Shown here piece by piece: positions 32,452 through 49,234 of a stretch of 64,000 nucleotides of DNA (position 1 is its first letter; each line of letters starts with the position of its first letter). Location: NCBI GenBank assembly GCA_041481445.1, contig JBGPBV010000020.1, forward strand, positions 288 through 64,287, written 5' to 3'. Origin of the DNA: Vicinamibacteria bacterium. Its GTDB lineage: Bacteria; Acidobacteriota; Vicinamibacteria; Fen-336. The notes beneath the pieces are model-generated. The model did not search any database, was not told the origin of the DNA, and saw nothing but the letters and a program-made list of their open reading frames with translations. A program made the position numbers and the translations under genes.

Positions 32452-33519
32452 ATGCTCACCGGCAAGAACGTCCTCCGCGCCTTCCTCGTCTTCGTGCCGG
32501 TGAGCCTGTGGCTGGGCATGACCCATGCCTCGCCGACCTGGGTCTTCGTCACCTGCTGCCTGGCCATCCTGCCCCTGGCCGGGCTCATGGGCGAGGCGAC
32601 CGAGCACCTCACCCACCACACCGGTCCCGGCATCGGCGGCCTCCTCAACGCGACCTTCGGCAACGCGGCCGAGCTGATCATCGCGTTCATGGCCCTGTGG
32701 GCGGGCGAGAAGGAGATCGTCAAGGCCTCCCTCACCGGCTCCATCATCGGGAACATCCTGATGGTCCTGGGCCTGGCCATGGTCGCGGGGGGCTGGCGCC
32801 ACAAGGAGCTGCGCTTCAGCCGCATGGCCGCGGAGACGGGGAGCAGCATGATGGTGCTGGCGGTGGTGGCCCTCGTCATCCCCGCCATCTACGCCCAGGT
32901 CACCCAGCACACCCACCCCGAGCACACCGAGTCCCTCAGCTTCGACATCTCCTGGGTGTTGATCGTGACCTACGCGGCGAGCCTGATCTTCTCGCTCAAG
33001 ACCCACCAGCACCTCTTCCTCGGGGAGGGGGCGGACGACGAGAAGGAGGAGCACGGCCGCCCCTGGTCCACGGGGCGGAGCCTGGCCGTCCTCTTCGTGG
33101 CCGCCGCGTTCGTGGGCTGGGTGAGCGAGCACCTCGTGCACGCGGTGGGGGCGGCGGGCGAGGCCCTGGGCCTGCGCAAGGTCTTCATGGGGGTCGTGGT
33201 CCTGGCCGTGATCGGCAACGCGGCCGAGCACTCCACGGCCGTGCTCGTGGCCGCCAAGGGGAAGATGGACCTCGCCCTCGGCATCGCGATGGGCTCCTCC
33301 ATGCAGATCGCGCTCTTCGTCGCGCCCCTGCTCGTGATCGCGGGCCACCTCTTCGGCCATCCCCTCGGCCTCGAGTTCACGATCATGGAGGTGGTGGCGG
33401 TGTTCCTCTCCGTGGGCGCGGTGTCCCTCCTCGTGCACGACGGCAAGACCAACTGGTTCGAGGGCCTCCAGCTCCTCGCCATCTACCTGATCCTGGCCAT
33501 CGCGTTCTACTACCTCTGA
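32452..33519 (+). CDS. Ca2+/H+ antiporter (CAX family)
   Basis: GGLLNATFGNAAELII, GSIIGNIL, IGNAAEHSTA, GSSMQIALFVAP. Confidence 0.93.
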   Translation: MLTGKNVLRAFLVFVPVSLWLGMTHASPTWVFVTCCLAILPLAGLMGEATEHLTHHTGPGIGGLLNATFGNAAELIIAFMALWAGEKEIVKASLTGSIIGNILMVLGLAMVAGGWRHKELRFSRMAAETGSSMMVLAVVALVIPAIYAQVTQHTHPEHTESLSFDISWVLIVTYAASLIFSLKTHQHLFLGEGADDEKEEHGRPWSTGRSLAVLFVAAAFVGWVSEHLVHAVGAAGEALGLRKVFMGVVVLAVIGNAAEHSTAVLVAAKGKMDLALGIAMGSSMQIALFVAPLLVIAGHLFGHPLGLEFTIMEVVAVFLSVGAVSLLVHDGKTNWFEGLQLLAIYLILAIAFYYL

Positions 33520-33549
33520 GCCTTGCCGACCTGTTACACTCCAGGGGTC

Positions 33550-34167
33550 GTGCGCAAGGGCGTGGCGTTCGTCGTGGCGGGCCTGCTCGTGGCGCGCCCG
33601 GGGGCTACGGAGACGGAGGTGCGCAAGGTCGGCGACAAGGTCGACCTGCGGGCCAGCACCGCCCCCATCTCGGAGGTTCTGGACCGGCTGGCGCGCGAGA
33701 CGGGCATGAAGGTCACCTACGACGGCGCTCCCCCCCGCGCGCGCATCAACGTCACCCTCTCCGGCGTCACCCCCGTCCAGGCCGTCGTCTCCATCCTCGA
33801 GGGCCAGGGCCTCAACTACGCGTTGCGGATGGACCCGACCTCCACCAAGGTCGAGACGCTGATGCTGGTGGCGGGCGGCGGCACGGCCGGCCCCGCCGCG
33901 GCCCCTGCTCCTCCGGCGCGCGGCCAGCGCGCGATCGAGCGGGACCCGGAAGGCACGGGCGACACCGACGAGGACCCGCCGCCGGCAGAGGCCCAGCCGG
34001 CGACGGAAGAGCCGCCGCAGCGTCGCCCGGGGCTCATGCCCCAGTTCCCGGGTGGCATGCCCGCCGGTCCCGGAGGTCCCGTGATGCCCCTGACCCTGCC
34101 GACTCCGGCTCCCCCCCAGGCCGCGCCGAACGGGCCCCAGGGGACGCCGAACACGCCCCAGGACTGA
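33550..34167 (+). CDS. Exported protein with a stand-alone STN-like domain and an acidic, Pro-rich tail
   Basis: Signal-like N-terminus; VDLRASTAPISEVLDRLARETGMKVTYDG...INVTLSGVTPVQAVVSILEGQGLNY. TGTTACACT ends 9 nt before the GTG. Confidence 0.65.
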   Translation: MRKGVAFVVAGLLVARPGATETEVRKVGDKVDLRASTAPISEVLDRLARETGMKVTYDGAPPRARINVTLSGVTPVQAVVSILEGQGLNYALRMDPTSTKVETLMLVAGGGTAGPAAAPAPPARGQRAIERDPEGTGDTDEDPPPAEAQPATEEPPQRRPGLMPQFPGGMPAGPGGPVMPLTLPTPAPPQAAPNGPQGTPNTPQD

Positions 34168-34194
34168 CGCGCCCGCCTCCGCGCCCCGCCGCGC

Positions 34195-34845
34195 TCAGCG
34201 CGGCATATTGGGAGGCGCTCCACCCGGAGGCATGGTCAACGGTCCGACGGGTCCTCCGGGACCGCCGGCCCCCCCGGCCGGTCCGGGCCCCTGTTGCTTG
34301 CCCAGGCGCCGCGGCTGCCCGGCCAGGAACAGCCATTCGTTGTACTTCGTCCGGCCGTTGAAGAGGCGCAGGCTCGTGTCCGTGCTCGTGCTGGCCACGC
34401 CCGCGATGGCACCGAACGACGTGCCGCCCGCGGGTCCGAACGCGGAGGGAGGGCCGGACGGGCTCGGTCGTGGAGCGGGACCCGGGCTCGGGCGGATGCC
34501 GGGCTGGCCGCCTCCGCCCGTGGGGACCATCTCTCCCGGCCGCACGAACCGCCACTTGCCGTCCTTCGTCATCGGGTCCTTGAACTGGCGGCGCAGGAAC
34601 TTGCCCTTCACGAGCACCTCCAGCGAGGCCGGGAAGGCGTTGCCGTTCTTGCGCTGGTACTCCTCGATCGCGCGCGCGATCTGGTCCCCGCGGAAGTAGA
34701 GCTCCTGCTCGCGGTCGTCCTGCATCAGGTATTTCCAGGTGGAGACCCCCGCGCCCATGAGGATCATCATGACCGTGATCGCAGCCAGGAGGATGACGAG
34801 GGCGAAGCCGCCCTCGCGGCCGGCCGGCGGGCCGAGGGCGCTCCG
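34195..34845 (-). CDS. Non-E5 (GspK/PilX-like) prepilin with a Pro/Gly-rich insertion (start uncertain)
   Basis: REGG|FALVILLAAITVMMIL..., DREQELYFRGDQIARAIEEY, FPASLEVL, FLRRQFKDPMT, KYNEWLF. Nearest canonical starts are GTG 34956 or ATG 34770. Confidence 0.75.
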   Translation of the reverse strand, partial: RSALGPPAGREGGFALVILLAAITVMMILMGAGVSTWKYLMQDDREQELYFRGDQIARAIEEYQRKNGNAFPASLEVLVKGKFLRRQFKDPMTKDGKWRFVRPGEMVPTGGGGQPGIRPSPGPAPRPSPSGPPSAFGPAGGTSFGAIAGVASTSTDTSLRLFNGRTKYNEWLFLAGQPRRLGKQQGPGPAGGAGGPGGPVGPLTMPPGGAPPNMPR

Positions 34846-34846
34846 C

Positions 34847-35491
34847 CTACCGGGAGGCGGGCGCGTAGGCCTGCGCGCGCTGCAGGACCTTCTCGACGTA
34901 GGCGCGCGTCTCCGGATAGGGCGGCACGCCGCCGTGGCGCGCCACCGCGCCTTCACCGGCGTTGTAGGCGGCCAGGGCCCGCTTCACGTCGCCCTGGTAG
35001 CGGTCGATGAGGGCGCGGAGATGGCGCGTCCCGCCCTCGACGTTGTCCGCGGGGTCGAACGCGTCGGTGACGCCGAGGGAGCGCGCGGTGGCGGGCATGA
35101 GCTGCATCAGCCCCTGGGCGCCCTTGGGCGAGACGGCGTCGGGCCGGAAGGCCGACTCCACCGCGATCACGGCGCGCACCAGCTCGGGGTCGATCGAATG
35201 ACGGCGAGCGGCGGCCGTCACCAGCGCGGCCAGGTCCGTCGGGCCCGAGGCCACCGGCGCCGCCGCCAGCTCCTCGAGGACCTCGTCGGGCACGATGCCG
35301 CGCAGCTCCGTCTCCACCACGCCGACTTCCCCGCCGCCGGCCAGGGACATGACGACGGTCCCCGCCTCGACCCGGTGCGCGGTCACCTTCAGGGTCGCCC
35401 CGCTGCGCAGGACGGCGATGTCGGCGCGCGCGGCGGACGACGCCCCCAGCAGGAGGACGGCGGCGGCGGCGGTGAGGATGGGCAGTCTCAT
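34847..35491 (-). CDS. Lytic transglycosylase (SLT domain)
   Basis: AVIAVESAFRPDAVSPKGAQGLMQLMPAT, ALAAYNAGEGAV, ETRAYV. Confidence 0.93.
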   Translation of the reverse strand: MRLPILTAAAAVLLLGASSAARADIAVLRSGATLKVTAHRVEAGTVVMSLAGGGEVGVVETELRGIVPDEVLEELAAAPVASGPTDLAALVTAAARRHSIDPELVRAVIAVESAFRPDAVSPKGAQGLMQLMPATARSLGVTDAFDPADNVEGGTRHLRALIDRYQGDVKRALAAYNAGEGAVARHGGVPPYPETRAYVEKVLQRAQAYAPASR

Positions 35492-36249
35492 AGGACCGGG
35501 ATCGTGAGCGCCGTCGATTTTATCATGGCCGTCGCGCCGGGCGCTGAAGCGGTCACCTGGACCGATCCCTGAACGGTCCGTTTCGTGCGCATGACGTTCT
35601 CCGCCTCCCCGTTGTTGTTCGTGAAGACCGGCCCCTGGATGTCGAAGAACTCGGTGGGCTTGTCGGCGTCATCGACCTCGAAGAAGACGGGCACGTTCGC
35701 GATGCCATTGCCGCTCGCGCCGGTGACGCGCGCGAAGACGTGAGTGGAGTTCGAGGTCGTGATCCGCGGCGGGTCCGCACGCAGGCAGCACACGGTCGTG
35801 ACGTTGGCGTTGCCGACGGTCACGGTGGTGGTTTGCTGAGTGAGCCCGGTTCCCCCCGTGGACGTCGGCGGAGTCGGGCTGGCACTGGGGCTGGCGCCAC
35901 TGGACGGAAGACCCGCGCCGCCGGAGGTGGCAGTAATGAGCGCCGTCCCCGATCGGCTGTCCGACGTGAAGTTCACCTTGGCGATGCCGTTCCTGGTCTT
36001 CCCTTGCGGCTCGATGAAGCCGAGGTTGGTGAAGAACAGGACGACCGTGCCGTCCGCCACGGGAGTCCCCGCGGGCTCGAACACGACCGCCGTGATCACG
36101 GAGACACCGCCGTCGGCCGGTACAAACGTCGGGTTGGCCTGGAGGCCGATGGTCGATCCCCCGGGCGCCAGGAAGAGCGCGTCCGCGCACGAGAGGAGGG
36201 CGCCCACGAGCACCGCGCCCGCGAGCCACGACAAGTGGCGGGCGCTCAC
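35488..36249 (-). CDS. Lipoprotein with two Ig-like (Big_1/invasin-type) domains
   Basis: Lipobox LLSC; ANPTFVPADGGVSVITAVV...GTPVADGTVVLF; S/T/P linker; second domain ADPPRI...NVPVFF...TNNNGEA. Confidence 0.7.
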   Translation of the reverse strand: MSARHLSWLAGAVLVGALLSCADALFLAPGGSTIGLQANPTFVPADGGVSVITAVVFEPAGTPVADGTVVLFFTNLGFIEPQGKTRNGIAKVNFTSDSRSGTALITATSGGAGLPSSGASPSASPTPPTSTGGTGLTQQTTTVTVGNANVTTVCCLRADPPRITTSNSTHVFARVTGASGNGIANVPVFFEVDDADKPTEFFDIQGPVFTNNNGEAENVMRTKRTVQGSVQVTASAPGATAMIKSTALTIPVL

Positions 36250-38726
36250 GGGCCCACCGTGATCCGCGACGTGCCCGCCACGGGCACGGCGACAGTACCG
36301 GAAGCAGATGTGGTCATGAGAGCCTCCACGGCGACGATCGCGGCGCCGGGCTTCAGACCCCGGAACGTCATCGTCGCCACTACGCCGGAGCCGGCGGAGC
36401 CGGCCGCCCGCGTGAACTGCACGCGCAGGCGTCCCGTCTCCAGCCCCCGGTTCACCCCCACCGGCGAGCCGTCGAGCGTCAAGAGCGGCCCCGGCGACAC
36501 GTCCTGCGCGTCGAGAAGGGAAGGATCGTAGGTCACGGTCAGGTCGATCCCGCGGAGGTCCTGCGCCCCCATCACCACGACACCGACGGTGCCCGTTCCG
36601 CCCACCGGGATCCGGACCTCGGCCGGAGAGAAGACCGCCGTCGCGCCCCGTGCCGCCGGCCCAGAGGGACCCGCCCCGGCGGGCCCGGACGCGGGCGAAG
36701 AGGGAGGCATCGTAGCAGACGGCCCGGCGCCCGACGAGAGCGGAGACGGCGACGGGCTCGGCGGCGGCGCCACGGGCGGCGTCACGCCCGCGGGCGGGCC
36801 GACGCCGGAGGCGGGCGGGATGTTCGCGGGCACGCCCGGCGGCGGGACGGGCGGAGAGAGCGAGCCGGGTGCGGGAGCGCCGGGCGACGGGGACGGCGCG
36901 GCCGCCGGGGCGACAGGGGCGCCGGGCGCCTGCGGAGACGTGCTCCCGACCGGCGCGAGCTGATCCTCGGGCACGCCGAGAGGCAGCGTCCGCGACGGGT
37001 TCATCTTCGTCAGCTCGCGCGTGCCGATGTAGACCGGCTGCATGTCCGCGGCCGTCACCTTCGGCGCGCGCACGAGATGGGGCGTGAGCGACATGAGGAT
37101 CTCCTGGTCCTCGTGCGTCTTCTTCCTCGAGGTCAGGAACTTGTTCAGGATCGGGATGCTCTGCACGCCGAGGATCCCGGCGAAGGTGTCGGTGTCGGTG
37201 CTGGCGAGCAGGCCGCCCAGGAGGGTGGTCTCGCCGTCGTGCAGGCGCAGCGTGCCGGTGACCTTGCGCGTCAGGAAGGTCGGCACGTTGAGGGGGTTCG
37301 CGCCCGTCCCCACGTTCCGGTCCGCCCCGATGCTCGAGAACTCCGCGTCCATTTCCAGCGAGATGTCGCCGTTGGGGTTGACCCTGGGCGTGATCTCCAG
37401 GTTCACGCCCACGTTCTTGTAGTTGAACGACGTCGCGGGCGCGAACGTGCTCGACCCGGCCTGGGTGGAGGTGAAGGTCGTGACCGGGATCGGGACCTCG
37501 GTGCCGATGCGCAGGCTCGTCTTCTTGCCCTCCGCCGCGCGCAGGCGCGGGTTGGCCAGGAGGCGCCCGGTGTCCTCGTTCTGCAGGAAGCGGACGAGCA
37601 CGGTGGAGGGGATGCTGACCACGAAGTCGGAGACGTTGAGCGACGAGAGCACCTGGGCCCGCACGTTCGTGAAGCCATTGCTGAGCTCACCGGCCGTGCC
37701 CGTGGGCGCGAAGGTCGCCTGGGCGGAGTAGTTCGACAGCTCGATGCCGTATTGCTTGAGCTTGTTGCGGTTGACCTCGAGGATCTCCAGCTCCACCACC
37801 ACCTCCCCCCGGGCCTTGTCGTGCAGGCCCACGATCTTCTCCGCCACCGCCACTTCGTCGGGGGTGCCGAACACGGTCATCGCGCCCAGGGCGGCGTTGG
37901 ACACCACGGTCAGGGTCTGGCTGCCGATGCCGGTCTTGATGAGCGTCTCCATGTCCTTGGTCTCGGCGTTCTCGAGGTAGAACGTGCGCAGCACGCGCTC
38001 GTCGTAGGTCCGCCGCTTGGCCGCCGACTCCGGGATGATGATGATCGTGGTGGTGTCGAGGACCTTGTAGAAGAGCCGGTTCACGAACGTGATGCGGTCC
38101 AGCGCGTCCTTGAAGCTCTCGTTGCGGAGGTCGATCGACACCCCCGTCTTGTCGCGGAAGGACTCGTCGAAGAGGACGTTGACGCCGGCCAGCCGTCCCA
38201 TCGTCTCCAGGATCTTCTGGAGGCTCGCGTTCTCGAACTTGATCGAGATGGGGGCCGTGCTCTGGGGGGAGAGGACGGGCAGGGGCGGAGGCGCCGCCTG
38301 CGCGAGGGCCTTCATCTGGTCGAAGTCGGACAGGCGCTTCTTCTGCGCCTCCTGCTCGCGGATGCGCTCCTGGACCATGACGAGGTCGTCGGCGGCGGAC
38401 TTGTTCCCCGGATCGTAGTTGGCGGCGATCTGCAGCTCCTGCGCCGCCTGGTCGAGCTGGTCGGCCTGGAGATGGCGCCTGGCCGTCTCGTAGTGCTGGC
38501 GGCTGGCCTGGACGCGCGCGTTCTCGAGAGCGATCTTGTAGCCGATGTTGCCGGGATCCTTCTGCAGGGCCTTCGTGAACCGGGCCACGGCCAGGTCCCA
38601 GTTCCCTTTCTTCGCCTCCCCCTCGCCCTGGCGGTAGGCCCAGCGGGAGGCGCAGCCCGCCTGGACGGCGACGGCCAGGGCCAGGATCGCCCACCTCATC
38701 CACGTCGATGGCCGCCTTGGCCCCAT
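36246..38726 (-). CDS. Lipoprotein secretin (GspD/PilQ family) with TPR N-terminus and C-terminal cohesin-like domain, paralog 2
   Basis: Lipobox QAGC; TPR-like helices; NYKNVGVNLEITPRVN; LHDGETTLLGGL; MSLTPHLV; about 110-aa Pro linker; cohesin-like TVTYDPSLL...GSGVVATMTFRGLKPG. TGATG coupling to the upstream gene. Confidence 0.88.
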   Translation of the reverse strand: MGPRRPSTWMRWAILALAVAVQAGCASRWAYRQGEGEAKKGNWDLAVARFTKALQKDPGNIGYKIALENARVQASRQHYETARRHLQADQLDQAAQELQIAANYDPGNKSAADDLVMVQERIREQEAQKKRLSDFDQMKALAQAAPPPLPVLSPQSTAPISIKFENASLQKILETMGRLAGVNVLFDESFRDKTGVSIDLRNESFKDALDRITFVNRLFYKVLDTTTIIIIPESAAKRRTYDERVLRTFYLENAETKDMETLIKTGIGSQTLTVVSNAALGAMTVFGTPDEVAVAEKIVGLHDKARGEVVVELEILEVNRNKLKQYGIELSNYSAQATFAPTGTAGELSNGFTNVRAQVLSSLNVSDFVVSIPSTVLVRFLQNEDTGRLLANPRLRAAEGKKTSLRIGTEVPIPVTTFTSTQAGSSTFAPATSFNYKNVGVNLEITPRVNPNGDISLEMDAEFSSIGADRNVGTGANPLNVPTFLTRKVTGTLRLHDGETTLLGGLLASTDTDTFAGILGVQSIPILNKFLTSRKKTHEDQEILMSLTPHLVRAPKVTAADMQPVYIGTRELTKMNPSRTLPLGVPEDQLAPVGSTSPQAPGAPVAPAAAPSPSPGAPAPGSLSPPVPPPGVPANIPPASGVGPPAGVTPPVAPPPSPSPSPLSSGAGPSATMPPSSPASGPAGAGPSGPAARGATAVFSPAEVRIPVGGTGTVGVVVMGAQDLRGIDLTVTYDPSLLDAQDVSPGPLLTLDGSPVGVNRGLETGRLRVQFTRAAGSAGSGVVATMTFRGLKPGAAIVAVEALMTTSASGTVAVPVAGTSRITVGP

Positions 38727-39292
38727 CAGTTCCCCTTGAGCGGGATCCGGCGCACGTGCTCCGAACCCACCTCCTGGACGTCCACCGATTCCAGCCCGAT
38801 GCGGACCACGCGATACCGGTTGGCCACCACCTCGCCCGCCTGCGCGGTGAGCACTTCCTTGTGATCGGTCATCAAGACCGCCACCTTGAGGCCCTTCCGC
38901 CCTTCGAACGCGCCAATGTACTTGAGGTTCATCGGGGGCAGGGGCGGCGGGGTGGGGGGCGCGACCACGGGCGGGGGCGTGGCCGCGTCCTCCTCCGCCT
39001 GCGCCCTGGCCACGCTGGATCCCGGCGGAGGGGGTGGTGGAGGCGGAGGCGTGGCGAAGTCGAAGAGGTCGCGCTTCCCGATGCCCGAGTCCGGGCGCGG
39101 CCGCTCGAGCCGCGCGAGGTCGATGCGCGGGACGTCCGGCTCGCGCTTGACTCCCGGGCGCGCGCCCGTCGTGGCCGCGGGCGCGGTGGGCACGGCGGCG
39201 GGCGTCGTCTCGCGGAAGACGGCCCAGCCCACGGAGAGGAGCGCCGCCACCGCCACCGCGGGGACGACCCACCGGCGGCCCTTGATCACCAT
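38726..39292 (-). CDS. PilP/GspC-like membrane-anchored protein
   Basis: N-terminal TM, KRDLFDF, poly-Pro, LKYIG...VAVL...AQAGEVVANRYRVVRIG; lies directly before the secretin. Confidence 0.7.
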   Translation of the reverse strand: MVIKGRRWVVPAVAVAALLSVGWAVFRETTPAAVPTAPAATTGARPGVKREPDVPRIDLARLERPRPDSGIGKRDLFDFATPPPPPPPPPGSSVARAQAEEDAATPPPVVAPPTPPPLPPMNLKYIGAFEGRKGLKVAVLMTDHKEVLTAQAGEVVANRYRVVRIGLESVDVQEVGSEHVRRIPLKGN

Positions 39293-39735
39293 TCGTTGTA
39301 GGCCGTTCCCTTGAGGGAGGTCGCCGCGGAGGCGCTCTTGACGTCGTAGATGCCGGACTGGGCGGTGGGGTCGTCCGGGTCCGGCTCCGCGTTCACGACC
39401 TCCCAGTCCGCCTGTCCGGTCATGGGGTCCGCGGGGATCTTGCGCAGGTAGCCCTGTTCCTTGAGCTCGTCGAGCGACGTCGGGTAGCGCCCCTTGTCCG
39501 CGTAGAACTGGTCGATCACGTCGCGGAAGAGGAACAGGTCCTGGGCGAGGGTGGCCTCCTTGGCCCCGATGATGGCCGCCTTGTAGTTGGGCAGCGCCAC
39601 CGCGGCCAGGATGCCGACGATCATCACGACGGTCATCAGCTCGAGCAACGTGAAACCCTGCTCTTGCAGGCAGCGGGTGCGGCGCAGCACCCGTTGCGCC
39701 ACCGCTGACCGGCACCTTCGCGTTGCGCTCACCAT
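39286..39735 (-). CDS. GspG-like prepilin (N-methylation motif)
   Basis: QG|FTLLELMTVVMIVGILAAVALP, KEATL, DQFYADKGRYPTSLDEL, YLRKIPADPMT. Confidence 0.9.
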   Translation of the reverse strand: MVSATRRCRSAVAQRVLRRTRCLQEQGFTLLELMTVVMIVGILAAVALPNYKAAIIGAKEATLAQDLFLFRDVIDQFYADKGRYPTSLDELKEQGYLRKIPADPMTGQADWEVVNAEPDPDDPTAQSGIYDVKSASAATSLKGTAYNEW

Positions 39736-40190
39736 GCCCTGTACTTCGTCCCGTCCAGGCCCTTGCCCTCGCTGAGCGAGTAGACGTCCCAGACGTTCTC
39801 CCCGCACCAGCTCGTGTCGTCGGGATCGTCCTGGTAGCAGCGCTTGCCCCATTCCGCCTTCCCCGTCATCGGGTCGAAAGGGACGCTGCGGAGGAACTTG
39901 AGCTTGCTGTCGATCTTGCCCACCTGGCTCACGCCCTTGACGAGCACGTCGAGGTCCTTGGGATACCCCTCGCTGCCCACCTGGACGTCGGTCCCGCCGA
40001 TCCGCCCCTGCCTCACCGCATCATGGTAGCCGTCCAGGGCCGTGCGCAGGATCCGCAGCGTGCGACGCAGCTCGATCTCCTTCTGGCGCTTTCGGACCAC
40101 CTTGGCGGTGGGAAGGATCGCGGTGGCGAGGATCATGAGGACCGCCATCGTGGCCAGCAGCTCGAAGTAGGTGAACCCCCGGGGCTTCAA
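39729..40190 (-). CDS. GspG-like prepilin (N-methylation motif)
   Basis: RG|FTYFELLATMAVLMILA, QKEIELRRTLRILRTALDGY, YPKDLDVLV, FLRSVPFDPMT, GTKYRAW. Confidence 0.9.
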   Translation of the reverse strand: MKPRGFTYFELLATMAVLMILATAILPTAKVVRKRQKEIELRRTLRILRTALDGYHDAVRQGRIGGTDVQVGSEGYPKDLDVLVKGVSQVGKIDSKLKFLRSVPFDPMTGKAEWGKRCYQDDPDDTSWCGENVWDVYSLSEGKGLDGTKYRAW

Positions 40191-40768
40191 CGAGTCTCCT
40201 CCCCCGCCCGGGCCCCGGTCGCGTCCGTGGCCGGCGTGCGATAGAAGGCGGTCATCGCGAGGTCGAGGTCGGCTTCGCCGCCGCTGGCCCGCTTGCGGAA
40301 CTGGATCTGGTCGACGGTGACGAAGTAGGAGGACCGCTCCAGGCGTTCGAGGAAGGCGGCCAGCTCGTGGTAGGTGCCCGAGACGGGCATGTGGACCTGA
40401 AGCAGGGAGACGCCCTCCCCGCCCTTCACGTCCTCCGGGGTATACGTGAAGCCCCCGACCTTCAGACCCAGCTCCCGGGCCAGCGCCGTGATCTCCGCGC
40501 GCACCTGCGACAGCGTCGCCTTGGGCCCGAGGCGGGCGTAGAAGCGCCCTACGTCCGCCTGGTTGGAGCGCATGGTGTCGGCCCGGCCGCGCAGGGCCTC
40601 GGTGATGCGGCGGTCCCTCTCCACCTCGTCGCGCAGGACCTGCAGGCGCGCGGCCGCGCTCCGCTCCCGCAGGGACCGCGGCATCGTGTAGGAGAAATAG
40701 ACGCCCGCGTTGAGCATGACCAGGACGAGCAACGGGACCTTCAGGCGGTCGCGCCAGCGACGCCTCAC
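40187..40768 (-). CDS. PilO/GspM-like protein
   Basis: One TM, coiled coil, PVSGTYHELAAFLERLERSSYFVTVDQI. Confidence 0.8.
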   Translation of the reverse strand: MRRRWRDRLKVPLLVLVMLNAGVYFSYTMPRSLRERSAAARLQVLRDEVERDRRITEALRGRADTMRSNQADVGRFYARLGPKATLSQVRAEITALARELGLKVGGFTYTPEDVKGGEGVSLLQVHMPVSGTYHELAAFLERLERSSYFVTVDQIQFRKRASGGEADLDLAMTAFYRTPATDATGARAGEETR

Positions 40769-41658
40769 GAGGAGACCCCCGAGGGCACCGAGCGCCGGGG
40801 CCGGACGCCGGACGGAGTCATGGGCAGCACGGGCGGCGTGATCGCGTGCGAGGGGGCGGCCACCGGCGGCGCGGCCGCGCCTCCGACCGGCGGGACCGCT
40901 CCTCCCGCCGGCGGGACCGCGTCCGCCGCGGGCGGAGCGGCTCCTCCCGCGGGCGGCCGGCGCAGCGGGGCCACACCCGCGGTGGCCGGAGCGCCCTCCG
41001 ACGGCACGCCCTCCGTCGCGGCGGGGGCGCCCTGCGTCGCCAACGGGACCTCGGCCTCGTCGGATGGGGCCGCTTCGGTTGCGGGCGCGGCGGAGCCCGC
41101 CGGCGGCGGACCTTCCGCCGTCACCGTGGCCGGCCGGTACCGCATCGTGTAGTGGAACTCGCCGTTCTCGCCCTCGCTGAGGGGGAACACGGTGTCGAAG
41201 CTCCCCCCTTCCTCGAGGGCGCGCATGAACTGCCACCCGACCTCGGGCGAGCGCACCATCGCCTGCACGTCGAGCGCGATCTCGCCCTGGTGCACGGCGG
41301 GCGCGATCGACACGAGGCGGGCCCCGTCGGGCAGCCTCTCCTCCAGGCGCGCGAACAGCCCCGTCCACGAGAACGCGCGGCGGTACACGAGGTCCTTGAC
41401 CACCAGCCAGCGCGCGAGGGCCTTGGGCTCCGGGTTCAGGTTGCGCAGGCTCGCCTGCTCGGCCCGCAGGCTGGCCGAGGCCTTCTCGAGCTGCAAGACC
41501 TCGTCGTGCAGGGCCGAGGTGCGCCGGGGCAGCAGGGCCCGTACCACGAGGGCGTGGCGCGCGGTGAGCGCGAGCACGGCCACGGTCGCGACCGCGAAGA
41601 TGAGGTTGGGCAGCCGCTCGTTGCGGAACGGACGGCGCGCGAGGTTGGCCGGCCTCAT
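40765..41658 (-). CDS. PilN-like protein with a long Pro/Ala tail
   Basis: NLARRPFRNER, TM, coiled coil, RRAFSWTGLFARLEERLPDGARLVSIAP. Confidence 0.8.
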   Translation of the reverse strand: MRPANLARRPFRNERLPNLIFAVATVAVLALTARHALVVRALLPRRTSALHDEVLQLEKASASLRAEQASLRNLNPEPKALARWLVVKDLVYRRAFSWTGLFARLEERLPDGARLVSIAPAVHQGEIALDVQAMVRSPEVGWQFMRALEEGGSFDTVFPLSEGENGEFHYTMRYRPATVTAEGPPPAGSAAPATEAAPSDEAEVPLATQGAPAATEGVPSEGAPATAGVAPLRRPPAGGAAPPAADAVPPAGGAVPPVGGAAAPPVAAPSHAITPPVLPMTPSGVRPRRSVPSGVSS

Positions 41659-42638
41659 GCCGGCGCTCCCAGGCAGGCGGCCGCCCCCGCCAGCGCGTGA
41701 GCCGCCGGTCCGGGATCGGGGGTGCCGAGCACGCGCCAGGGGTCGACCGGCTCCGGCCGCACCCCCAGCGGCGGCTCCAGCACCGCCGCCGCCTCGTCCG
41801 GAGGGAGCGCGGTCACACGGAACAGGACCTGCTCCAGGCCGGGGCTGCCCAGCCGCTCGCGGGCGTACACGAGGGTCTGCGCGGCCTCCCGGGCCACTTC
41901 CGCGGGCGAGTTCACGATCGCGCCGGTCAGCGTCCGCGCGAGCACGGGCCAGCCGTGCCGCACCAGGACGAGGGTGGCGTAGCCCTCGTCCCAGTTCACG
42001 AGGAGCCGGTCGCCCCCCGATTCCGGACCGAAGGCGGAGCGGCACAGGGCCAGCGCGCTCAGCTCGACCAGGCCGGGCTCGAGGCCCACCGAGAGGCACA
42101 CCTCCTCGTAGGCCTCGACCACGCTGCCGAGCGCGGCCACCGCCACCAGCGCGTCTCCCGCGCGCGGCGAGCGGACGTGGGCGACACGCGCCTCGCGCAC
42201 GTCGAAGGGCAGCGATTTCCGGAGGCGGAAGCGGACGAGCTCGTCCAGCTCCGAGGCGCGCGCGGCCTGGAACTCGGCGGGGGGGACGAGGGCGACCCGG
42301 CCCACGGGATCGGGCAGCACGAGGGCCACCGGCGCCCCGCCCAGGACCCCCGCCCGCTCGAGCGCGCCCCGCAGCGCGGTCCGGAAGCGGTCAGGGTCGG
42401 CCAGGTTGTCCTGGGTCAGGGAGGGCTGGAGGACGCCCGGGGGCAGCTCCACGACGGCGGCCGCGGCCAGCGCGATCGCCCGTTTCTCGCGGCGCAGGCG
42501 GACCACGCCGATCCCGCCCGGCCGCACCTCGACCGCCACCTGGGGACGCTCGGGCTCGAGCAGGCTCCGCCAGGCGCGGGCGGCGAGGCCGGCCACGGCG
42601 GGGCGGCCCGAGGACAGGACGGGCGGCGCCGCCGTCAC
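41655..42638 (-). CDS. PilM/GspL-like cytoplasmic alignment protein
   Basis: VALVLPD, VRFRLRKSLPFD, YEEVCLSVGLEPGLV; lies between the ATPase and pilN. Confidence 0.75.
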   Translation of the reverse strand: MTAAPPVLSSGRPAVAGLAARAWRSLLEPERPQVAVEVRPGGIGVVRLRREKRAIALAAAAVVELPPGVLQPSLTQDNLADPDRFRTALRGALERAGVLGGAPVALVLPDPVGRVALVPPAEFQAARASELDELVRFRLRKSLPFDVREARVAHVRSPRAGDALVAVAALGSVVEAYEEVCLSVGLEPGLVELSALALCRSAFGPESGGDRLLVNWDEGYATLVLVRHGWPVLARTLTGAIVNSPAEVAREAAQTLVYARERLGSPGLEQVLFRVTALPPDEAAAVLEPPLGVRPEPVDPWRVLGTPDPGPAAHALAGAAACLGAPA

Positions 42639-44266
42639 CCCACCTCCACGAACGTCACCTTGTTGATCTCGTGGAGGGTGGTGTGCCCAGCCAGGGCCTT
42701 GTTCACGGCCGACTCGCGCAGGAAGACCATCCCCTCCTCGCGCGCCGCCCGCTTGATCTCGGCGCTGGAGCGGCGGGCCAGGATCAGCTCGCGCACGTTG
42801 TCGCTGAGGTCGAGCAGCTCGGAGATGGCCATGCGGCCCTTGTACCCGGTCCCGCCGCACTCCAGGCAGCCCGCCCCTTCGTAGAACCAGACGTCGCCGT
42901 AGGTGGCGGGGTTGAGGCCGGACTCGGTGAGCATCTGCGGGCTCGCCCGCACCTTGCGCTTGCAGTGCAGGCAGATGGTGCGCACCAGGCGCTGGGCCTG
43001 CACGCAGTTGAGGGCGGACACGAAGTTGTAGGGCTCGATCTTCATGTTGAGGAAGCGGCCCAGCACGTCGATGACGTTGTTGGCGTGGACGGTCGTGAAG
43101 ACGAGGTGGCCGGTGAGGGCGGACTGGATCGCGATGTCCGCCGTCTCCGCGTCGCGGATCTCCCCCACCATGATCTTGTCGGGGTCGTGGCGCAGGATCG
43201 AGCGCAGGCCGCGGGCGAAGGTCAGCCCCTTCTTCTCGTTCACCGGGATCTGGGTGATGCCCTTGAGCTGGTACTCGACGGGGTCCTCGATGGTGATGAT
43301 CTTGTCCTCTTCGCTCTTGATCTCGCTCAGCGCGGCGTAGAGGGTGGTGGTCTTGCCGGAGCCGGTGGGCCCGGTCACCAGCACCATCCCATACGGCTCG
43401 CGGATGAAGCGCCGGAAGCGCGCCATCTCCTTCTCGTCGAAGCCGAGGACGTCGAGGCGCAGCGAGGTGAACTGCTCGGACAGGCTCTCCTTGTCCAGGA
43501 TGCGGATGACCGCGTCCTCGCCGTGCACGGAGGGCATGATCGAGACGCGGAAGTCGATCGACCGGCCGCGGATCTTCACCCGGAAGCGGCCGTCCTGGGG
43601 CACGCGCTTCTCCGCGATGTCCAGCTCGGCCATGACCTTGATGCGGCTGATGATCGTGGCGTGGTGCTCCTTGGCGATCGGCTTCATGGCCGGCTGGAGC
43701 ACCCCGTCGATGCGGTACTTGATCACGACCTCGGTGTCGCGGGTCTCGATGTGGATGTCGGAGGCGCGGCGGTTGAGGGCGTCGAACACCGCAGAGTCGA
43801 TGAGGCGGATGATCGGCGAGGCGTCGGCTTGGATCTTGTCGATGGAGAGGACGTCCTCCCCGTTGTCGTCGTCGCGGAGGATCTGGATCTTGAAGGACTC
43901 CGAGGCCTCCTCCAGGACCCGCGTGGTGCCCGAGCCGCGCTTGAGGGCCTCCCCGATCGCCGTGGGCGTACCCACCGCGGGCTGGATGGGGGTCTGGAGC
44001 AGCAGGCTCAGGTCGTCCACCACCGTGATGTCGGTGGGGTCGGCCATCACGAGCACGAGGCGGCCGTTCTCGCGCCGGTAGGGCAGGAAGTTGTAGCGGA
44101 ACATCAGCTCGACGGGCACCGACTGCAGGATCTCGGGGTCGGGGGCGAAGGAGCCCACGTCCACGTACTCGAGCCCGTAGCGGGTGGCCAGGGCGCGGGC
44201 CGCCTCCTCCTCGGAGGCGCCGCCAACCGCGCCCGGCACCGTCGGGATGCGGACGGGATCCGCCAT
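42635..44266 (-). CDS. GspE/PilB-family assembly ATPase
   Basis: ASDIHIE, LDIAEKRVPQDGR, Walker A GPTGSGKTT, TIEDPVE, LRHDPDKIMVGEIRD, TGHLVFTTVH, Zn motif CLHC...CLEC. Confidence 0.95.
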   Translation of the reverse strand: MADPVRIPTVPGAVGGASEEEAARALATRYGLEYVDVGSFAPDPEILQSVPVELMFRYNFLPYRRENGRLVLVMADPTDITVVDDLSLLLQTPIQPAVGTPTAIGEALKRGSGTTRVLEEASESFKIQILRDDDNGEDVLSIDKIQADASPIIRLIDSAVFDALNRRASDIHIETRDTEVVIKYRIDGVLQPAMKPIAKEHHATIISRIKVMAELDIAEKRVPQDGRFRVKIRGRSIDFRVSIMPSVHGEDAVIRILDKESLSEQFTSLRLDVLGFDEKEMARFRRFIREPYGMVLVTGPTGSGKTTTLYAALSEIKSEEDKIITIEDPVEYQLKGITQIPVNEKKGLTFARGLRSILRHDPDKIMVGEIRDAETADIAIQSALTGHLVFTTVHANNVIDVLGRFLNMKIEPYNFVSALNCVQAQRLVRTICLHCKRKVRASPQMLTESGLNPATYGDVWFYEGAGCLECGGTGYKGRMAISELLDLSDNVRELILARRSSAEIKRAAREEGMVFLRESAVNKALAGHTTLHEINKVTFVEVG

Positions 44267-44270
44267 CTCT

Positions 44271-45482
44271 TTAGACCCCCTGCCGCTCGACGCCGCCGAT
44301 GGCCTCGAACAGCGGCAGGTAGAAGGCCAGGAGCATGGCGGCCACGACGAAGGCCATGAACACGAGCAGGACCGGCTCCACGAGCGACAGCACCTTGGCC
44401 ATGCTCGTCTCCATCTCCTCGTCGTAGAAGTCGGCCACGGAGTTGAGCATTTCCCCCAGCGCGCCCGTCTGTTCGCCCACCTTCACCATCTCGAGGGTCA
44501 GCTGGTCCATCATCCCCGTCGACTCGAGCGCGTTGGTCAGACTCCGCCCCTCGCGGATCTGGTGCGTCGCTCCGGATACAGCCGCGGCGATGGCCTTATT
44601 CCCGATCGAGTTCCCGGCCACCTCGAGGGCGTTGAGGAGGGGCAGTCCACCCTGGAGCAGGGCGGAGAGCGTCCGCGCGAGCTGGCTGGTCGCATACATC
44701 TGCATCAGGCGGCCGAAATACGGCAGCGCGAGGAGGAAACGGTTGATCGTGATCGCGGAGCCCTCCCGCCGCGCCCAGGCCTTGAAGCCCAGCCAGGACC
44801 CCACCACGGCCAGGACCACCCAGAACAGGTTCCGCTTGAAACCGAGGGCGATCGCCATCAGGACACGCGTGACCAGCGGCAGCTCCAGGTCCATGCCGTT
44901 GTAGAAGTCCTGGAACTGCGGGATCACCTTCAGGAGCATGACCGCGAGCAGCACCCCCATCATGACGAACAGCATGATCGGGTAGACGGAGGCGGCGATG
45001 GCCCGCTTGCGGAGCGCGTTCGTGAGGCGCAGGTACTGGCCCAGCCGCCGCAGGACTCCCTCCAGGTTGCCGCTGCGCTCCCCGGCGATCAGGCTCGCGG
45101 ACAGGATCGGCGGGTAGAGCTGGCCTTCGGCCTTGAAGGCGTCGGAGAGGGCTACCCCCGACTTCACCTTCTCCCGGATCGTCTCCAGCGACCGCTTGAA
45201 GGTCGGCTCCTGCTGCCGCTCGAGCATGATGTCAAGGGACTGGACCAGGGGCAGCCCGGCCTTGAGCAGCGCGGCCAGCTCCTGGGTGAAGGTGAGCAGC
45301 CGCTCGGTCGGGATGTGGGGCCGGCGCAGGCCCAGGTCGCGGAGGCCGAACCCGCGGCGGACGGAGAAGAGGTAGTACCCCTTCTGCTCGAGGTCCGTGC
45401 GGAGGGCGGACTCGTCCGGGGCGGAGAACGTCTGCTCCACCACTTCCCCCGACGGCGTGCCGACCTTGCAGACGTAGTCCAT
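44271..45482 (-). CDS. GspF/PilC-family inner-membrane platform protein
   Basis: FTQELAALLKAGLPL, AGERSGNL, KVGEQTGAL, LSLVEP, YLPLF. Confidence 0.93.
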   Translation of the reverse strand: MDYVCKVGTPSGEVVEQTFSAPDESALRTDLEQKGYYLFSVRRGFGLRDLGLRRPHIPTERLLTFTQELAALLKAGLPLVQSLDIMLERQQEPTFKRSLETIREKVKSGVALSDAFKAEGQLYPPILSASLIAGERSGNLEGVLRRLGQYLRLTNALRKRAIAASVYPIMLFVMMGVLLAVMLLKVIPQFQDFYNGMDLELPLVTRVLMAIALGFKRNLFWVVLAVVGSWLGFKAWARREGSAITINRFLLALPYFGRLMQMYATSQLARTLSALLQGGLPLLNALEVAGNSIGNKAIAAAVSGATHQIREGRSLTNALESTGMMDQLTLEMVKVGEQTGALGEMLNSVADFYDEEMETSMAKVLSLVEPVLLVFMAFVVAAMLLAFYLPLFEAIGGVERQGV

Positions 45483-45512
45483 GCGCTCCGGCCCCCGAGG
45501 GGCCGATCGTCT

Positions 45513-45540
45513 AATTTAACAGGCCGCAGCCAAGATCCAA
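45513..45540 (-). promoter_or_regulatory. Putative sigma70 promoter of the pilus-like operon
   Basis: Minus strand TTGGAT-N16-TAAATT with an extended TG, in an AT-richer 96-bp gap. Confidence 0.45.
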
Positions 45541-45578
45541 AACTGCAACGACTTGCGGCCAGCCGCCCCGCTGTCGGG

Positions 45579-46892
45579 TCAGCGCGCCCGGGCCACCACG
45601 AGCGTCATGTCGTCCTCGGCCTGGGCGCCCGCGGACCAGCCCTGGACCTCGCCCAACAGGGAGTACAAGGCGATACGGGCGGATGATTCCCCGCCCAGGC
45701 GCACGGCCGCCTCCTTGAGGCGCTCGACGCCGTACATCTCGCCGCCGGGGTTCGCGCGATCGGTGAGGCCGTCGCTGTAGAAGACGAACAGGTCGTCGCG
45801 CTCGAAGGGCACCGAGCCCTGCTCGTACTCGGAGTCCTCCACCAGGCCGAGCACGGTCCCGCCCTGCATGAGGTCGCGGGCCTCGCGCCGGGGCGCCACG
45901 AGGAACGGGTAATGGTGGCCGGCGTTGACGTAGTCGAGGCTTCCGGCCTCCAGGTCGAAGACGCCGAAGAAGAGGCTGGCGAACAGGCCATTGGGGACGA
46001 CGTCCCAGAACATCCGGTTCACCTTGGCCACCAGCGTCTGTGGGCAGACGTTCTCCGCCTCCACCTGGGCGCGGATCGAGGCCTTGAGGTTCGCGGCCAG
46101 CAGGGCCGCCGGCACCCCCTTGCCCATCACGTCGCCGATCGCGAAGGCCAGGCGGTGCGGGCCGAGCGAGACGAAGTCGTAGAAGTCGCCCCCGATCTCG
46201 CGGAAGGGGATGAACTCCCGCGCGACCTCGAGCCGCGCGTGCTGGAGGGGCACCGGGAGCAGGCTGCGCTGGACGTTCGAGGCCAAACGCAGCTCCTCCG
46301 CCATGCGGCTGGCCAGCACCTCCAGCCGCCCGTAGAGGCCCTGCAGCTCCGCGTTCTTGCGCGAGAGCTCCGACATCCAGCCCCGCACGCGCACCGCGGA
46401 ATGCACGCGGGCCAGGAGCTGGCGCTCGCCCAGGCCCGCCGCCACCACGTCGTCGATGGCGGCCTGGTAGGCCGGACGGAGGCGCGGGCGCGAGCCCTCG
46501 CGCATCACCAGGAGCACCGCCGGCCGGGAGGTCTCGTGGCGGTCGGCCAGCGGGGCCAGCACGCGGCTCAGGCCGCGCGTCCCCAGCGCCGCGTCCAGGA
46601 GCAGGACCTCGAAACCGGCGTCGGCGAGGCCGTCCGCCTCCTCCACCCCGAACGCGGACATGTCGTAGGCGCGCGTCAGCAGGCGCCGGCGGCGCACTCC
46701 CGGCAGCCGGCCGATCAGCGCGACGCGCGGGCGCGGGGCGGGGGGCGGCGGCACGGGGGTCGCGGCGCGGGGCGACTCCGCGGTCAAGACGCGCGCGACG
46801 TCGAGGGCGGCGTCGCCGGCCGAGGATCGGCGGGCCGCGCGCGGCCGCCGGCGCTCCGGCACGGCCATCCAGCCCTCACGCGGCGCCGCCAT
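45579..46892 (-). CDS. PP2C/SpoIIE (RsbU-like) phosphatase with degenerate receiver-like N-terminus
   Basis: ASNVQRSLLP, IGGDFYDF, IGDVMGKGVPAAL, YVNAGH, YSDGLTD, EDDMTLV; TGATG coupling to the response regulator. Confidence 0.9.
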   Translation of the reverse strand: MAAPREGWMAVPERRRPRAARRSSAGDAALDVARVLTAESPRAATPVPPPPAPRPRVALIGRLPGVRRRRLLTRAYDMSAFGVEEADGLADAGFEVLLLDAALGTRGLSRVLAPLADRHETSRPAVLLVMREGSRPRLRPAYQAAIDDVVAAGLGERQLLARVHSAVRVRGWMSELSRKNAELQGLYGRLEVLASRMAEELRLASNVQRSLLPVPLQHARLEVAREFIPFREIGGDFYDFVSLGPHRLAFAIGDVMGKGVPAALLAANLKASIRAQVEAENVCPQTLVAKVNRMFWDVVPNGLFASLFFGVFDLEAGSLDYVNAGHHYPFLVAPRREARDLMQGGTVLGLVEDSEYEQGSVPFERDDLFVFYSDGLTDRANPGGEMYGVERLKEAAVRLGGESSARIALYSLLGEVQGWSAGAQAEDDMTLVVARAR

Positions 46893-47578: not shown

Positions 47579-47586
47579 TGGGTGGA

Positions 47587-49134: not shown

Positions 49135-49234
49135 GGACGACGAGGGTACCATCCGCCCCGGGCCGGGTCCGTCCACAAAACGCAACCTTGAGTGAAACGT
49201 TGTGATGGACGGCCGGGGGCGAGCCTGCCGCCGA

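Follow-up and report, generated by a model that had tools for sequence, protein, structure and literature searches.

The closest described relatives of the system analyzed here are gene clusters of Ralstonia listed as an "unorthodox" type II secretion system (T2SS), which comprise seven core gsp genes and four hypothetical genes between gspE and gspD (PMC5080846, PMC6428702); the passages of these papers that concern the clusters report no functional test of them. On a broader scale, Denise, Abby and Rocha (2019; PMC6668835) left 884 "generic" systems with an ATPase, a platform protein, and a pilin without a type, and placed atypical T2SS of Chlamydiae and Bacteroidetes on branches apart. Acidobacteria are not mentioned in the main text of that study, and a remark in its supplement on a "group of Acidobacteria and Firmicutes" refers to pilin trees. 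Here, we analyze a 12-gene operon within a 64,000-nucleotide stretch of DNA from a Vicinamibacteria bacterium (phylum Acidobacteriota; GenBank assembly GCA_041481445.1, contig JBGPBV010000020.1, positions 288 to 64,287; hereafter, the window). The operon is genuine and intact, and the machine that it encodes, of a distinct type IV filament (TFF) class, is strongly conserved. Going by the description in PMC6668835, it is the kind of system that would fall among the generic systems of that study, and its gene content and tree positions place it in the same class as the "unorthodox T2SS" of Ralstonia, Burkholderia, and Aliiroseovarius.

The 12 co-oriented genes occupy window positions 34195-45482 on the minus strand, in the order that the initial annotation had proposed and with the domain calls that it had made: F, E, M, N, O, G1, G2, P, D, the Ig-like lipoprotein gene (Ig), the lytic transglycosylase gene (SLT), and G3. 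All frames are open with high third-position GC (G+C of the window is ~72%), and M, N, and G3 have no Pfam match. Eight junctions (E/M, M/N, N/O, O/G1, G2/P, P/D, D/Ig, and Ig/SLT) feature stop/start overlaps of 1-7 nt, across which translation is likely coupled. The joint presence of an assembly ATPase, a platform protein, prepilins, and a secretin, along with one A24 peptidase in the genome, places the operon in the TFF superfamily. The operon had also been called minimal, which holds only in a relative sense: 12 genes are accompanied by three conserved regulators.

The ATPase and the secretin each form a clade of their own, apart from the bona fide GspE/GspD and PilB/PilQ proteins sampled. 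E (543 aa; 42635-44266) is a PilB/GspE-family assembly ATPase with a PF00437 match of 440.5 bits and an N-terminal T2SSE_N/MshEN domain. Its trees included window E, 6 close relatives, 13 homologues from other acidobacterial families, an orphan ATPase from contig C76 of the same genome, three proteobacterial homologues, and ten acidobacterial ATPases over the GspE cut-off. Also included were two proteobacterial GspE (pO157 and Cupriavidus) annotated by the NCBI Prokaryotic Genome Annotation Pipeline (PGAP), four PilB (the genome's own and three that exceed the PilB cut-off), and a few unassigned paralogues; the sequences excluded were ownC12 (branch length 10), nine near-identical ones from Vicinamibacteria, six duplicates, and two that are partial. 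A quick tree of 45 rows recovered a 24-row clade, with a value of 100 in the Shimodaira-Hasegawa-like approximate likelihood ratio test, which unites the C76 orphan with the proteobacterial ATPases and all those of the clusters. A careful search on 44 rows placed the long-branch pair of L062 and ownC13 inside this class clade; because constraining the tree to retain the clade raised the log-likelihood by 162.6 (p of 1 in the approximately unbiased test), we judged the free search to have failed. In a careful tree of 41 rows, from which ownC13, L062, and L063 were removed, the class clade has support of 100/100 on a stem of 1.9 changes per site, and E lies outside both the PilB clade (100/99) and the GspE clade (92/82). 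Similarly, a careful secretin tree of 30 rows groups a second secretin of the window with those of 12 acidobacterial clusters and the three from Proteobacteria in a class clade (99/97), while PilQ (100/100), acidobacterial GspD (96/97), and proteobacterial GspD (100/97) form separate clades.

Scores against curated families tell the same products apart from the described systems, as every one falls below the NCBIfam cut-offs for T2SS, type IVa pilus (T4aP), and mannose-sensitive haemagglutinin (MSH) pilus proteins. E reaches 538.6 bits on the PilB model TIGR02538 (cut-off 675.65) and 534.9 bits on the GspE model TIGR02533 (cut-off 630.25), and scores 127 bits against the solved structure of BfpD. 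F (403 aa; 44271-45482), the GspF/PilC-family inner-membrane platform, carries two PF00482 repeats (183.6 bits) and reaches 311.5 bits on the NCBIfam GspF model, below its cut-off of 424. The four products that would form the inner-membrane ring and its link to the secretin are more divergent. M (327 aa; 41655-42638) is a PilM-like cytoplasmic protein. Its TIGR01175 score (17.3 bits) falls short of the cut-off (133), but the PilM structures 2ych (E 5.3e-7) and 3jc8 (E 2.3e-6) are matched by a profile built from 21 of its homologues. N (297 aa; 40765-41658), bitopic with one transmembrane segment and a Pro/Ala-rich tail, has no family match in Pfam or NCBIfam; its position after M and a conserved N-terminal peptide in its orthologues, NLAxRPFxNE, which we take to resemble the PilM-binding end of PilN, suggest that it is a PilN analogue. 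O (193 aa; 40187-40768) is a PilO/GspM-like bitopic protein (PF04350, 32.3 bits; PF10741, 26.4 bits) with 36.2 bits on the GspM model NF040576, below the cut-off of 60. Finally, P (188 aa; 38726-39292) has an N-terminal membrane anchor and a Pro-rich linker; its sole match is to the GspC_delta model NF041515 at 26.5 bits, far below the cut-off of 150, with no PilP match, and its probable role as a PilP/GspC-HR-like periplasmic protein follows from its location ahead of the secretin gene. By sequence and order, the M/N/O/P arrangement appears analogous to the T4aP alignment complex.

The three pilins of the operon are full-length paralogues with a GspG-like fold. G1 (153 aa; 39729-40190; N_methyl match) has the cleavage site G/FTYFE with Glu5 present; G2 (39286-39690; N_methyl match) has G/FTLLE and measures 134 aa from GTG 39690 or 149 aa from ATG 39735; and G3 (34195 to ~34821) has G/FALVI, lacks Glu5, and carries a Pro/Gly-rich insert and tail. 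The pattern P-x-x-L-x-x-L, [FY]LR, DPMT, and Y-x-x-W, which the initial annotation had picked out in all three, is borne out by alignments of 15-16 orthologues per family, and full-length profile-profile comparison with hhalign links G1 to G2 at 99.9% (E 1e-36), G2 to G3 at 99.4% (E 7e-22), and G1 to G3 at 99.2% (E 8e-20). On the GspG model TIGR01710 (cut-off 88.85), G2 reaches 46.9 bits and G1 17.7 bits; with their GspG-like fold, the pilins are remote homologues of GspG, outside the GspG family proper. In the globular domain, the G2 profile aligns with solved structures of GspG (5wda, E 3.2e-11; also 3g20, 2kep, and 1t92), and the G1 and G3 profiles match solved structures through the N-terminal helix only. 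AlphaFold2 models of G1 and G3 have predicted local distance difference test values of 78.1 and 66.1, respectively, the latter with disordered Pro/Gly-rich parts. In VIA-align, the best match of the G1 model is the Vibrio major pseudopilin EpsG (4lw9_A; Z 6.7, root-mean-square deviation 3.1 Å over 90 residues), with PulG 5wda at Z 5.9; EpsG is also the best match of the G3 model (Z 7.6, 3.5 Å over 93 residues), and GspK-type chains are absent from the rows listed for it. The Joint Genome Institute and NCBI pipelines likewise label G1 homologues as GspG or T2SS protein. G1 is the best conserved pilin and a candidate major pseudopilin, and G2 marks the position of the sole TIGR02532 match on the contig, a model that misses G1 and G3. 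The absence of a GspH/I/J set, first noted for the window, is upheld among the 12 products, none of which matches GspH, GspI, GspJ, or GspK beyond the N-terminal helix; the 12 products, rather than the whole window, were scanned with these models.

G3 stands out in two respects. Glu5 is missing from the window copy and from 13 of 13 orthologue rows with the N-terminus present. In addition, there is no ATG, GTG, or TTG between 34956 and 34770, and the frame is open far upstream across the end of SLT. The start is canonical in 9 of 12 orthologues, 6-11 codons before the cleavage-site glycine; the window, L017, and L028 are the three loci without a canonical start near the cleavage site. As an independent contig of run X1 matches window positions 34150-35115 without difference and is thus identical across the SLT-G3 junction, the missing start is not an obvious assembly error. 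Initiation at a non-canonical start, a 49-residue leader from GTG 34956, and coupling to SLT are all possible.

The secretin D (826 aa; 36246-38726) is built of a lipobox (AVQAGC), tetratricopeptide repeats (TPR), an STN/N0-like domain, one Secretin_N domain, the secretin domain (PF00263, 117 bits), a Pro-rich linker of ~150 aa, and a C-terminal cohesin; a FecR_C match accompanies STN, and Pfam finds no AMIN domain in D. Its NCBIfam scores are 124.6 bits for GspD (TIGR02517; cut-off 351.35), 108.2 for MshL (TIGR02519; 250.2), and 107.1 for PilQ (TIGR02515; 284.35). Among the D orthologues scanned, that of the window included, TPR are present in 11 of 11 and the cohesin in 9 of 11. The lipobox predicts that D is lipidated. 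Its cohesin is the only one in the genome, where dockerin PF00404 has no match over the cut-off and two sub-threshold matches at ~20 bits. Two further envelope genes follow D: a lipoprotein with Ig-like Big_1/Invasin_D3 domains (253 aa; 35488-36249; lipobox LLSC) and an SLT lytic transglycosylase with a signal peptide (214 aa; 34847-35491; PF01464, 105.3 bits). The former is restricted to close relatives (12 of the 17 Vicinamibacteria-type loci listed and 1 of 12 loci of other families), and SLT is found upstream of F in L039, L040, and the Burkholderia ambifaria cluster L032.

The second secretin of the window (2670-4493; 607 aa) also has TPR, lacks the cohesin, and starts within an overlapping LolA gene (2065-2673, plus strand). 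It nests in the cluster secretin clade beside the Vicinamibacteria D proteins (84/74), and has no ATPase or pilin alongside. Of 21 relatives, 20 have it (59-86% identity), five of these on the contig of the D orthologue at a distance of 18-36 kb.

Outside Acidobacteriota, tblastn of E against plasmids gave best matches of 44-57% identity in Paraburkholderia, Burkholderia, Caballeronia, Ralstonia, Variovorax, and Aliiroseovarius, which, where annotated, are named "GspE/PulE family protein" only. Three clusters, from a Ralstonia megaplasmid and from plasmids of B. ambifaria and Aliiroseovarius, have the gene order [SLT]-GspG-F-E, followed by four hypothetical genes, the secretin, and three pilins. 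They share with the window operon a platform, an ATPase, four small unannotated genes, a secretin, and three pilins, with SLT in B. ambifaria; identities to the window proteins are 44-51% for the ATPase, 31-46% for G1, 37-43% for G2, and 26-28% for the secretin, the TPR region included. The cohesin is present in the Ralstonia (L031; 81 bits) and B. ambifaria (L032) secretins but not in that of Aliiroseovarius (L068). In Ralstonia and Burkholderia, the third pilin is G3-like and lacks Glu5 (G/FTYLG), and the ATPases and secretins of all three fall inside the same clades as E and D. As delimited here (F-E-M-N-O-P-D plus three GspG-like pilins), the class is marked by ATPase and secretin clades of its own, a TPR-secretin with cohesin and predicted lipidation, and a triad of paralogous pilins of which the third lacks Glu5; the window operon shows each of these traits. 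The proteobacterial clusters differ in their location on plasmids or megaplasmids beside RHS genes and in lacking both the Ig-like lipoprotein and the kinase/regulator/phosphatase trio described below. Those of Burkholderiales carry an extra canonical GspG (DPWG motif) ahead of F, whereas in Aliiroseovarius a canonical GspG replaces the third pilin and an A24 peptidase is encoded in the locus. In the window lineage, by comparison, G1 and G2 have moved ahead of P and D. In L031 and L032, large RHS-repeat proteins are encoded immediately beside the clusters, and one such cluster is described as missing from some strains jointly with the adjacent rhsB (PMC6428702).

Relative to canonical T2SS, the operon shares the ATPase, platform, secretin, and GspG-like pseudopilins and likewise has no retraction ATPase in the locus; O matches T2SSM_b, P weakly matches the GspC model, and the distribution of the system is complementary to that of bona fide GspE. 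It departs from T2SS in lacking GspH/I/J/K and a PDZ-type GspC among its products and in encoding M and N as two proteins rather than as a fused GspL (the bona fide acidobacterial T2SS in L053 encodes a fused protein of 466 aa). In place of N0-N3 and an S domain, D combines TPR, N0, one N1, and a cohesin; all scores are below the equivalog cut-offs, and the ATPase and secretin lie outside the GspE and GspD clades. With T4aP, the operon has in common the split M/N/O/P ahead of the secretin, a PilB-like ATPase with N-terminal T2SSE_N, and reliance on a shared prepilin peptidase encoded elsewhere. Unlike T4aP, it lacks a PilT of its own, a PilA-type major pilin, and the FimU/PilVWX/PilY1 set, its secretin has no AMIN domain, the clades are separate, and a full T4aP is encoded elsewhere in the same genome. 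From MSH pili, the operon differs by the low MshL score of D; the trees hold no MSH proteins.

The rest of the genome (7.07 Mb in 280 contigs; 92.7% complete, 2.7% contamination) holds 14 T2SSE-family matches, four secretins, three platform loci, and one prepilin peptidase, and most of these are accounted for by a complete, separate T4aP. Its parts are pilB-pilT-pilC on contig C110, canonical pilM-N-O-P-Q on C1 (PilM_2, 245 bits; PilQ, 420 bits with an AMIN domain), a PilA-like pilin with a two-component pair on C221, and, on C8, pilD, the neighbors of which encode minor pilins of the PilX_N and PilW types and a protein of 1449 aa. The single PF01478 match of the genome, with A24_N_bact and Peptidase_A24 domains, is this pilD, so the window contains no prepilin peptidase; nor is there a second T2SSE-family ATPase, and hence PilT, on the window contig, PilT-like genes being confined to other contigs, from where their products might also act on this system. 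We therefore considered and rejected a canonical system with parts encoded elsewhere, as PilT, PilD, and the minor pilins sit with the complete T4aP, as does PilMNOPQ. Because the T4aP is separate and PF08334 GspG has no match in the whole genome, the operon is the genome's only T2SS-like candidate. The initial view that the cluster fits neither canonical T2SS nor T4aP, and that PilT and the peptidase are absent from the window, stands. The orphan ATPase inside the class clade (C76:2391-3848, locus L073) is 64% identical to E; unrelated genes surround it, and neither a platform nor a pilin or secretin gene is close by.

The caution, voiced at the outset, that similar clusters may exist in other phyla was well founded, and a synteny survey like the one then suggested finds the gene set collinear across classes of Acidobacteriota. 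A pattern scan with one genome per species identified at least 17 related loci; the 17 listed are all from Acidobacteriota or Vicinamibacteria metagenome-assembled genomes. Eleven carry all 12 genes in the same order, which excludes a chance arrangement; one is without a detectable P, four are collinear up to contig ends, and the last is a distant variant. In 15 of the 17, ATPase identity is 83-91%, and other parts range from 30 to 86%. In other families, 8 of 12 fetched loci have F, E, D, G1, G2, and G3 collinear with ATPases of 64-71% identity and the gene order (SLT)-F-E-M-N-O-P-D-G1-G2-G3. The other four depart from this: D is missing from the 20-kb stretch retrieved for two of them, a third, of 35% G+C, shows F, E, N, D, and G1, and the last retains D and G1 alone, its ATPase being encoded elsewhere. 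The window order, with G1 and G2 ahead of P and D and with Ig and SLT ahead of G3, is thus a rearrangement of its own lineage. Two loci show further variation. In L078 of family f33 (G039:C2:4178000-4197999), N-O-P-D-G1-G2-G3 lies directly upstream of a T4aP-type pilB-pilT-pilC and a two-component pair, and an insertion splits the G1 match in two. In L045 (2829 to ~5470), the ATPase frame is open for 880 aa without a separate M match, which may be an E-M fusion or a sequencing frameshift.

Of the 401 Acidobacteriota genomes sampled, 342 contain a G1 match at E<=1e-5, as do 197 of 228 genera. Among 1.84 billion representatives, the M profile matches 2207 at E<=0.001, of which 1024 reach E<=1e-10 and 161 reach E<=1e-30; in another search with M, 489 matches at E<=0.001 among 8000 scored candidates are nearly all metagenomic, with one named Vicinamibacteria. 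In 151 Acidobacteriota genomes searched with both G1 and GspE (TIGR02533 cut-off), bona fide GspE occurs in 20 of 23 genomes without a G1 match versus 6 of 128 with one, and a hand count by family code gives 11 of 12 all-negative families versus 4 of 48; the two systems are largely mutually exclusive across these genomes. These tallies include three genomes flagged as unpublished (G049, G024, and G152), the first of which also gave one tree row. One of the GspE loci is textbook in content (GspE, F, G with PF08334 at 124 bits, three small genes, K, a fused L, M, and D), and five more have the E-F-G order. Genome G186 (L043/L061/L090; single contig, 99% complete, ~4.9 Mb) has one PilB/GspE-like ATPase at E<=1e-80 and one secretin, both of which belong to the system described here; as judged from its genome, it appears to be without T4aP and without canonical T2SS.

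Three regulatory genes precede the operon on the minus strand: a sensor histidine kinase (HisKA and HATPase_c; 47587-49176), an OmpR-type response regulator (Response_reg and Trans_reg_C; 46892-47542), and a SpoIIE/PP2C-type phosphatase (45579-46892; PF07228, 153.6 bits) whose stop lies 96 nt ahead of the F start. Among the 17 loci listed, tblastn finds the kinase upstream of F in 11; the regulator is present in 12, at 86-91% identity and always directly upstream of the operon; and the phosphatase is present in 10 and missing from L015 and L024, where the regulator abuts F. On the other side, a divergent plus-strand gene (33550-34167) follows G3 and encodes a 205-aa protein with a signal sequence, a Pro-rich tail, and no Pfam match; it is conserved in 11 of the 17 loci listed at 36-58% identity (tblastn). 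Farther out, an M23 peptidase with a Csd3-like domain (31131-32432, plus strand) is encoded ~1.8 kb past the operon end. A sequence scan of 33400-49600 detected 0 promoter-like sites and 7 terminator-like sites, compared to 4.2 +/- 2.3 in shuffles, and is uninformative.

Beyond the gene content, homologies, separate clades, and distribution established above, homology and position suggest what such a machine may do. We regard it, at about an even chance, as a T2SS-like, envelope-spanning exporter of a distinct TFF class with a short pseudopilus capped by a Glu5-less pilin. The single prepilin peptidase on C8 would cleave G1, G2, and G3; hexameric E, docked on F and the PilM-/PilN-/PilO-like ring, would then polymerize a short periplasmic pseudopilus of GspG-like pilins, with G1 and perhaps G2 as its body. 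G3 would sit at the tip in place of the GspHIJK/PilIJK initiation complex, a position proposed because a pilin without Glu5 would need no partner above it. P would bridge the inner-membrane ring and D, which may need no separate pilotin because it is predicted to be lipidated and has its own TPR module, and SLT would open peptidoglycan for assembly. The growing pseudopilus would drive folded periplasmic proteins out via D, and, in Vicinamibacteria, the upstream kinase, response regulator, and PP2C phosphatase would control expression. In favor of an exporter, all core TFF parts are present and intact, the pilins resemble pseudopilins, and there is no retraction ATPase on the contig, as in T2SS. 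The operon is also the only T2SS-like candidate of a genome with a separate T4aP, and its ATPase is strongly conserved both within the class (83-91% identity) and across the phylum (64-71%). The anti-correlation with GspE, along with a genome, G186, that has only this system, suggests a functional replacement of T2SS.

Several observations weigh against an exporter of a distinct class. The inner-membrane ring is split as PilM/PilN/PilO/PilP, as in T4aP, rather than as GspL/M/C; E is slightly nearer PilB than GspE against solved structures (~427 bits to PilB/PilF over the full length and 360 to GspE); and PGAP labels the Ralstonia secretin orthologue PilQ. The structural matches of the pilin models are middling, all with Z below 8, and Foldseek returned no match at E<=0.001 for the G1 model, for which the top 8 rows are all GspG at E 0.23-0.82, and nothing relevant for the G3 model. 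The trees separate the class from T2SS and T4aP only, with no references for MSH, type IVb pili, Com, or Tad. The anti-correlation was counted over related, non-independent genomes and may reflect few events, the absence of G1 was scored with one protein query, and six genomes carry both systems, which are hence not strictly redundant. Finally, the literature searched, which did not extend to subscription journals, contains no characterized member, experiment, or substrate. The sequences as such are not new to databases, where pipelines label them "type II secretion system protein," and the class has had a passing mention in Ralstonia.

The leading alternative, which we consider possible though less probable than export, is a surface pilus for adhesion, biofilm formation, or DNA uptake, in which G1 would be the major pilin extruded through D and the cohesin or the Ig-like lipoprotein would aid attachment. 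The alignment complex of PilM/N/O/P type, the marginally higher scores of E on the PilB model and PilB structures, and the STN/N0 plus single N1 of the secretin, as in PilQ and in keeping with the PGAP name, all point in this direction, as do the matches of the G3 model to many true type IV pilins in VIA-align (Z 5-6.5). The lack of PilT is also compatible with a pilus, as non-retractile pili such as MSH and Com do not require it in the locus. However, the pilin globular domains match GspG rather than PilA-type proteins by profile, the genome already encodes a full T4aP, and the secretin is far from PilQ in both tree and score (107 bits against a cut-off of 284), has no AMIN domain, and scores low on MshL as well (108 bits against 250). 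The distribution of the system is complementary to canonical T2SS, not to T4aP, and because this pattern suggests T2SS replacement we favor a secretion piston over a surface pilus.

Alternatively, the operon may encode a specialized exporter, expressed under certain conditions, that handles a small set of dedicated cargos, for instance the Ig-like lipoprotein or RHS proteins, rather than a general pathway; the Hxc-type second T2SS of Pseudomonas is a model for such an arrangement. The system's own kinase, regulator, and PP2C phosphatase upstream in 10-12 of the 17 loci listed, the RHS-repeat proteins that adjoin L031 and L032, the place of the Ig-like lipoprotein inside the operon of close relatives, and the six genomes with both this system and bona fide GspE are consistent with it. 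These neighbors are not kept across the phylum, where Ig is found in only 1 of 12 loci of other families, and the presence of the system in 342 of 401 genomes and as the sole secretin system in G186 fit a housekeeping role better, which makes dedicated export unlikely. That the operon is an inactive relic or an assembly chimera mimicking an operon, as the G3 frames without a canonical start in the window, L017, and L028 and the 280-contig assembly with its contamination could suggest, is effectively refuted by 12 open frames of high third-position GC, the same order in 11 of 17 independent assemblies listed with an ATPase of 83-91% identity, and the independent contig across the SLT-G3 junction.

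Returning to the exporter, we tentatively extend the proposal to the class as a whole, as a conjecture that we hold with clearly less confidence than export itself. It would represent a third major diderm branch of the T2SS/T4aP lineage, serving as the general folded-protein export system of most Acidobacteriota in place of canonical T2SS, with no PilI/J/K-type initiation complex, a Glu5-less cap, a self-piloting TPR-secretin, and a cohesin that holds a partner. If true, a Glu5-less cap without PilI/J/K would be an exception to the licensing mechanism that PMC13533445 proposes as common to type IV pili, T2SS, and Tad. Three paralogous pseudopilins without a recognizable GspHIJK/PilIJK set would offer a natural minimal test of whether tip complexes are universal in type IV filaments, and the fusion of a pilotin-like TPR module and a cohesin to a secretin bears on how secretins are targeted and what they bind.

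Members of the class are also carried by replicons of Proteobacteria that associate with plants, and the label "unorthodox T2SS" was given to them there with no study of function. Its broader interest lies in soil. Acidobacteriota are among the most abundant soil bacteria and live largely by secreted enzymes; if the system is their main outer-membrane route, one uncharacterized machine underlies much of the ecology of the phylum. Overall, the operon described here may represent the main protein-export route of a dominant soil phylum.

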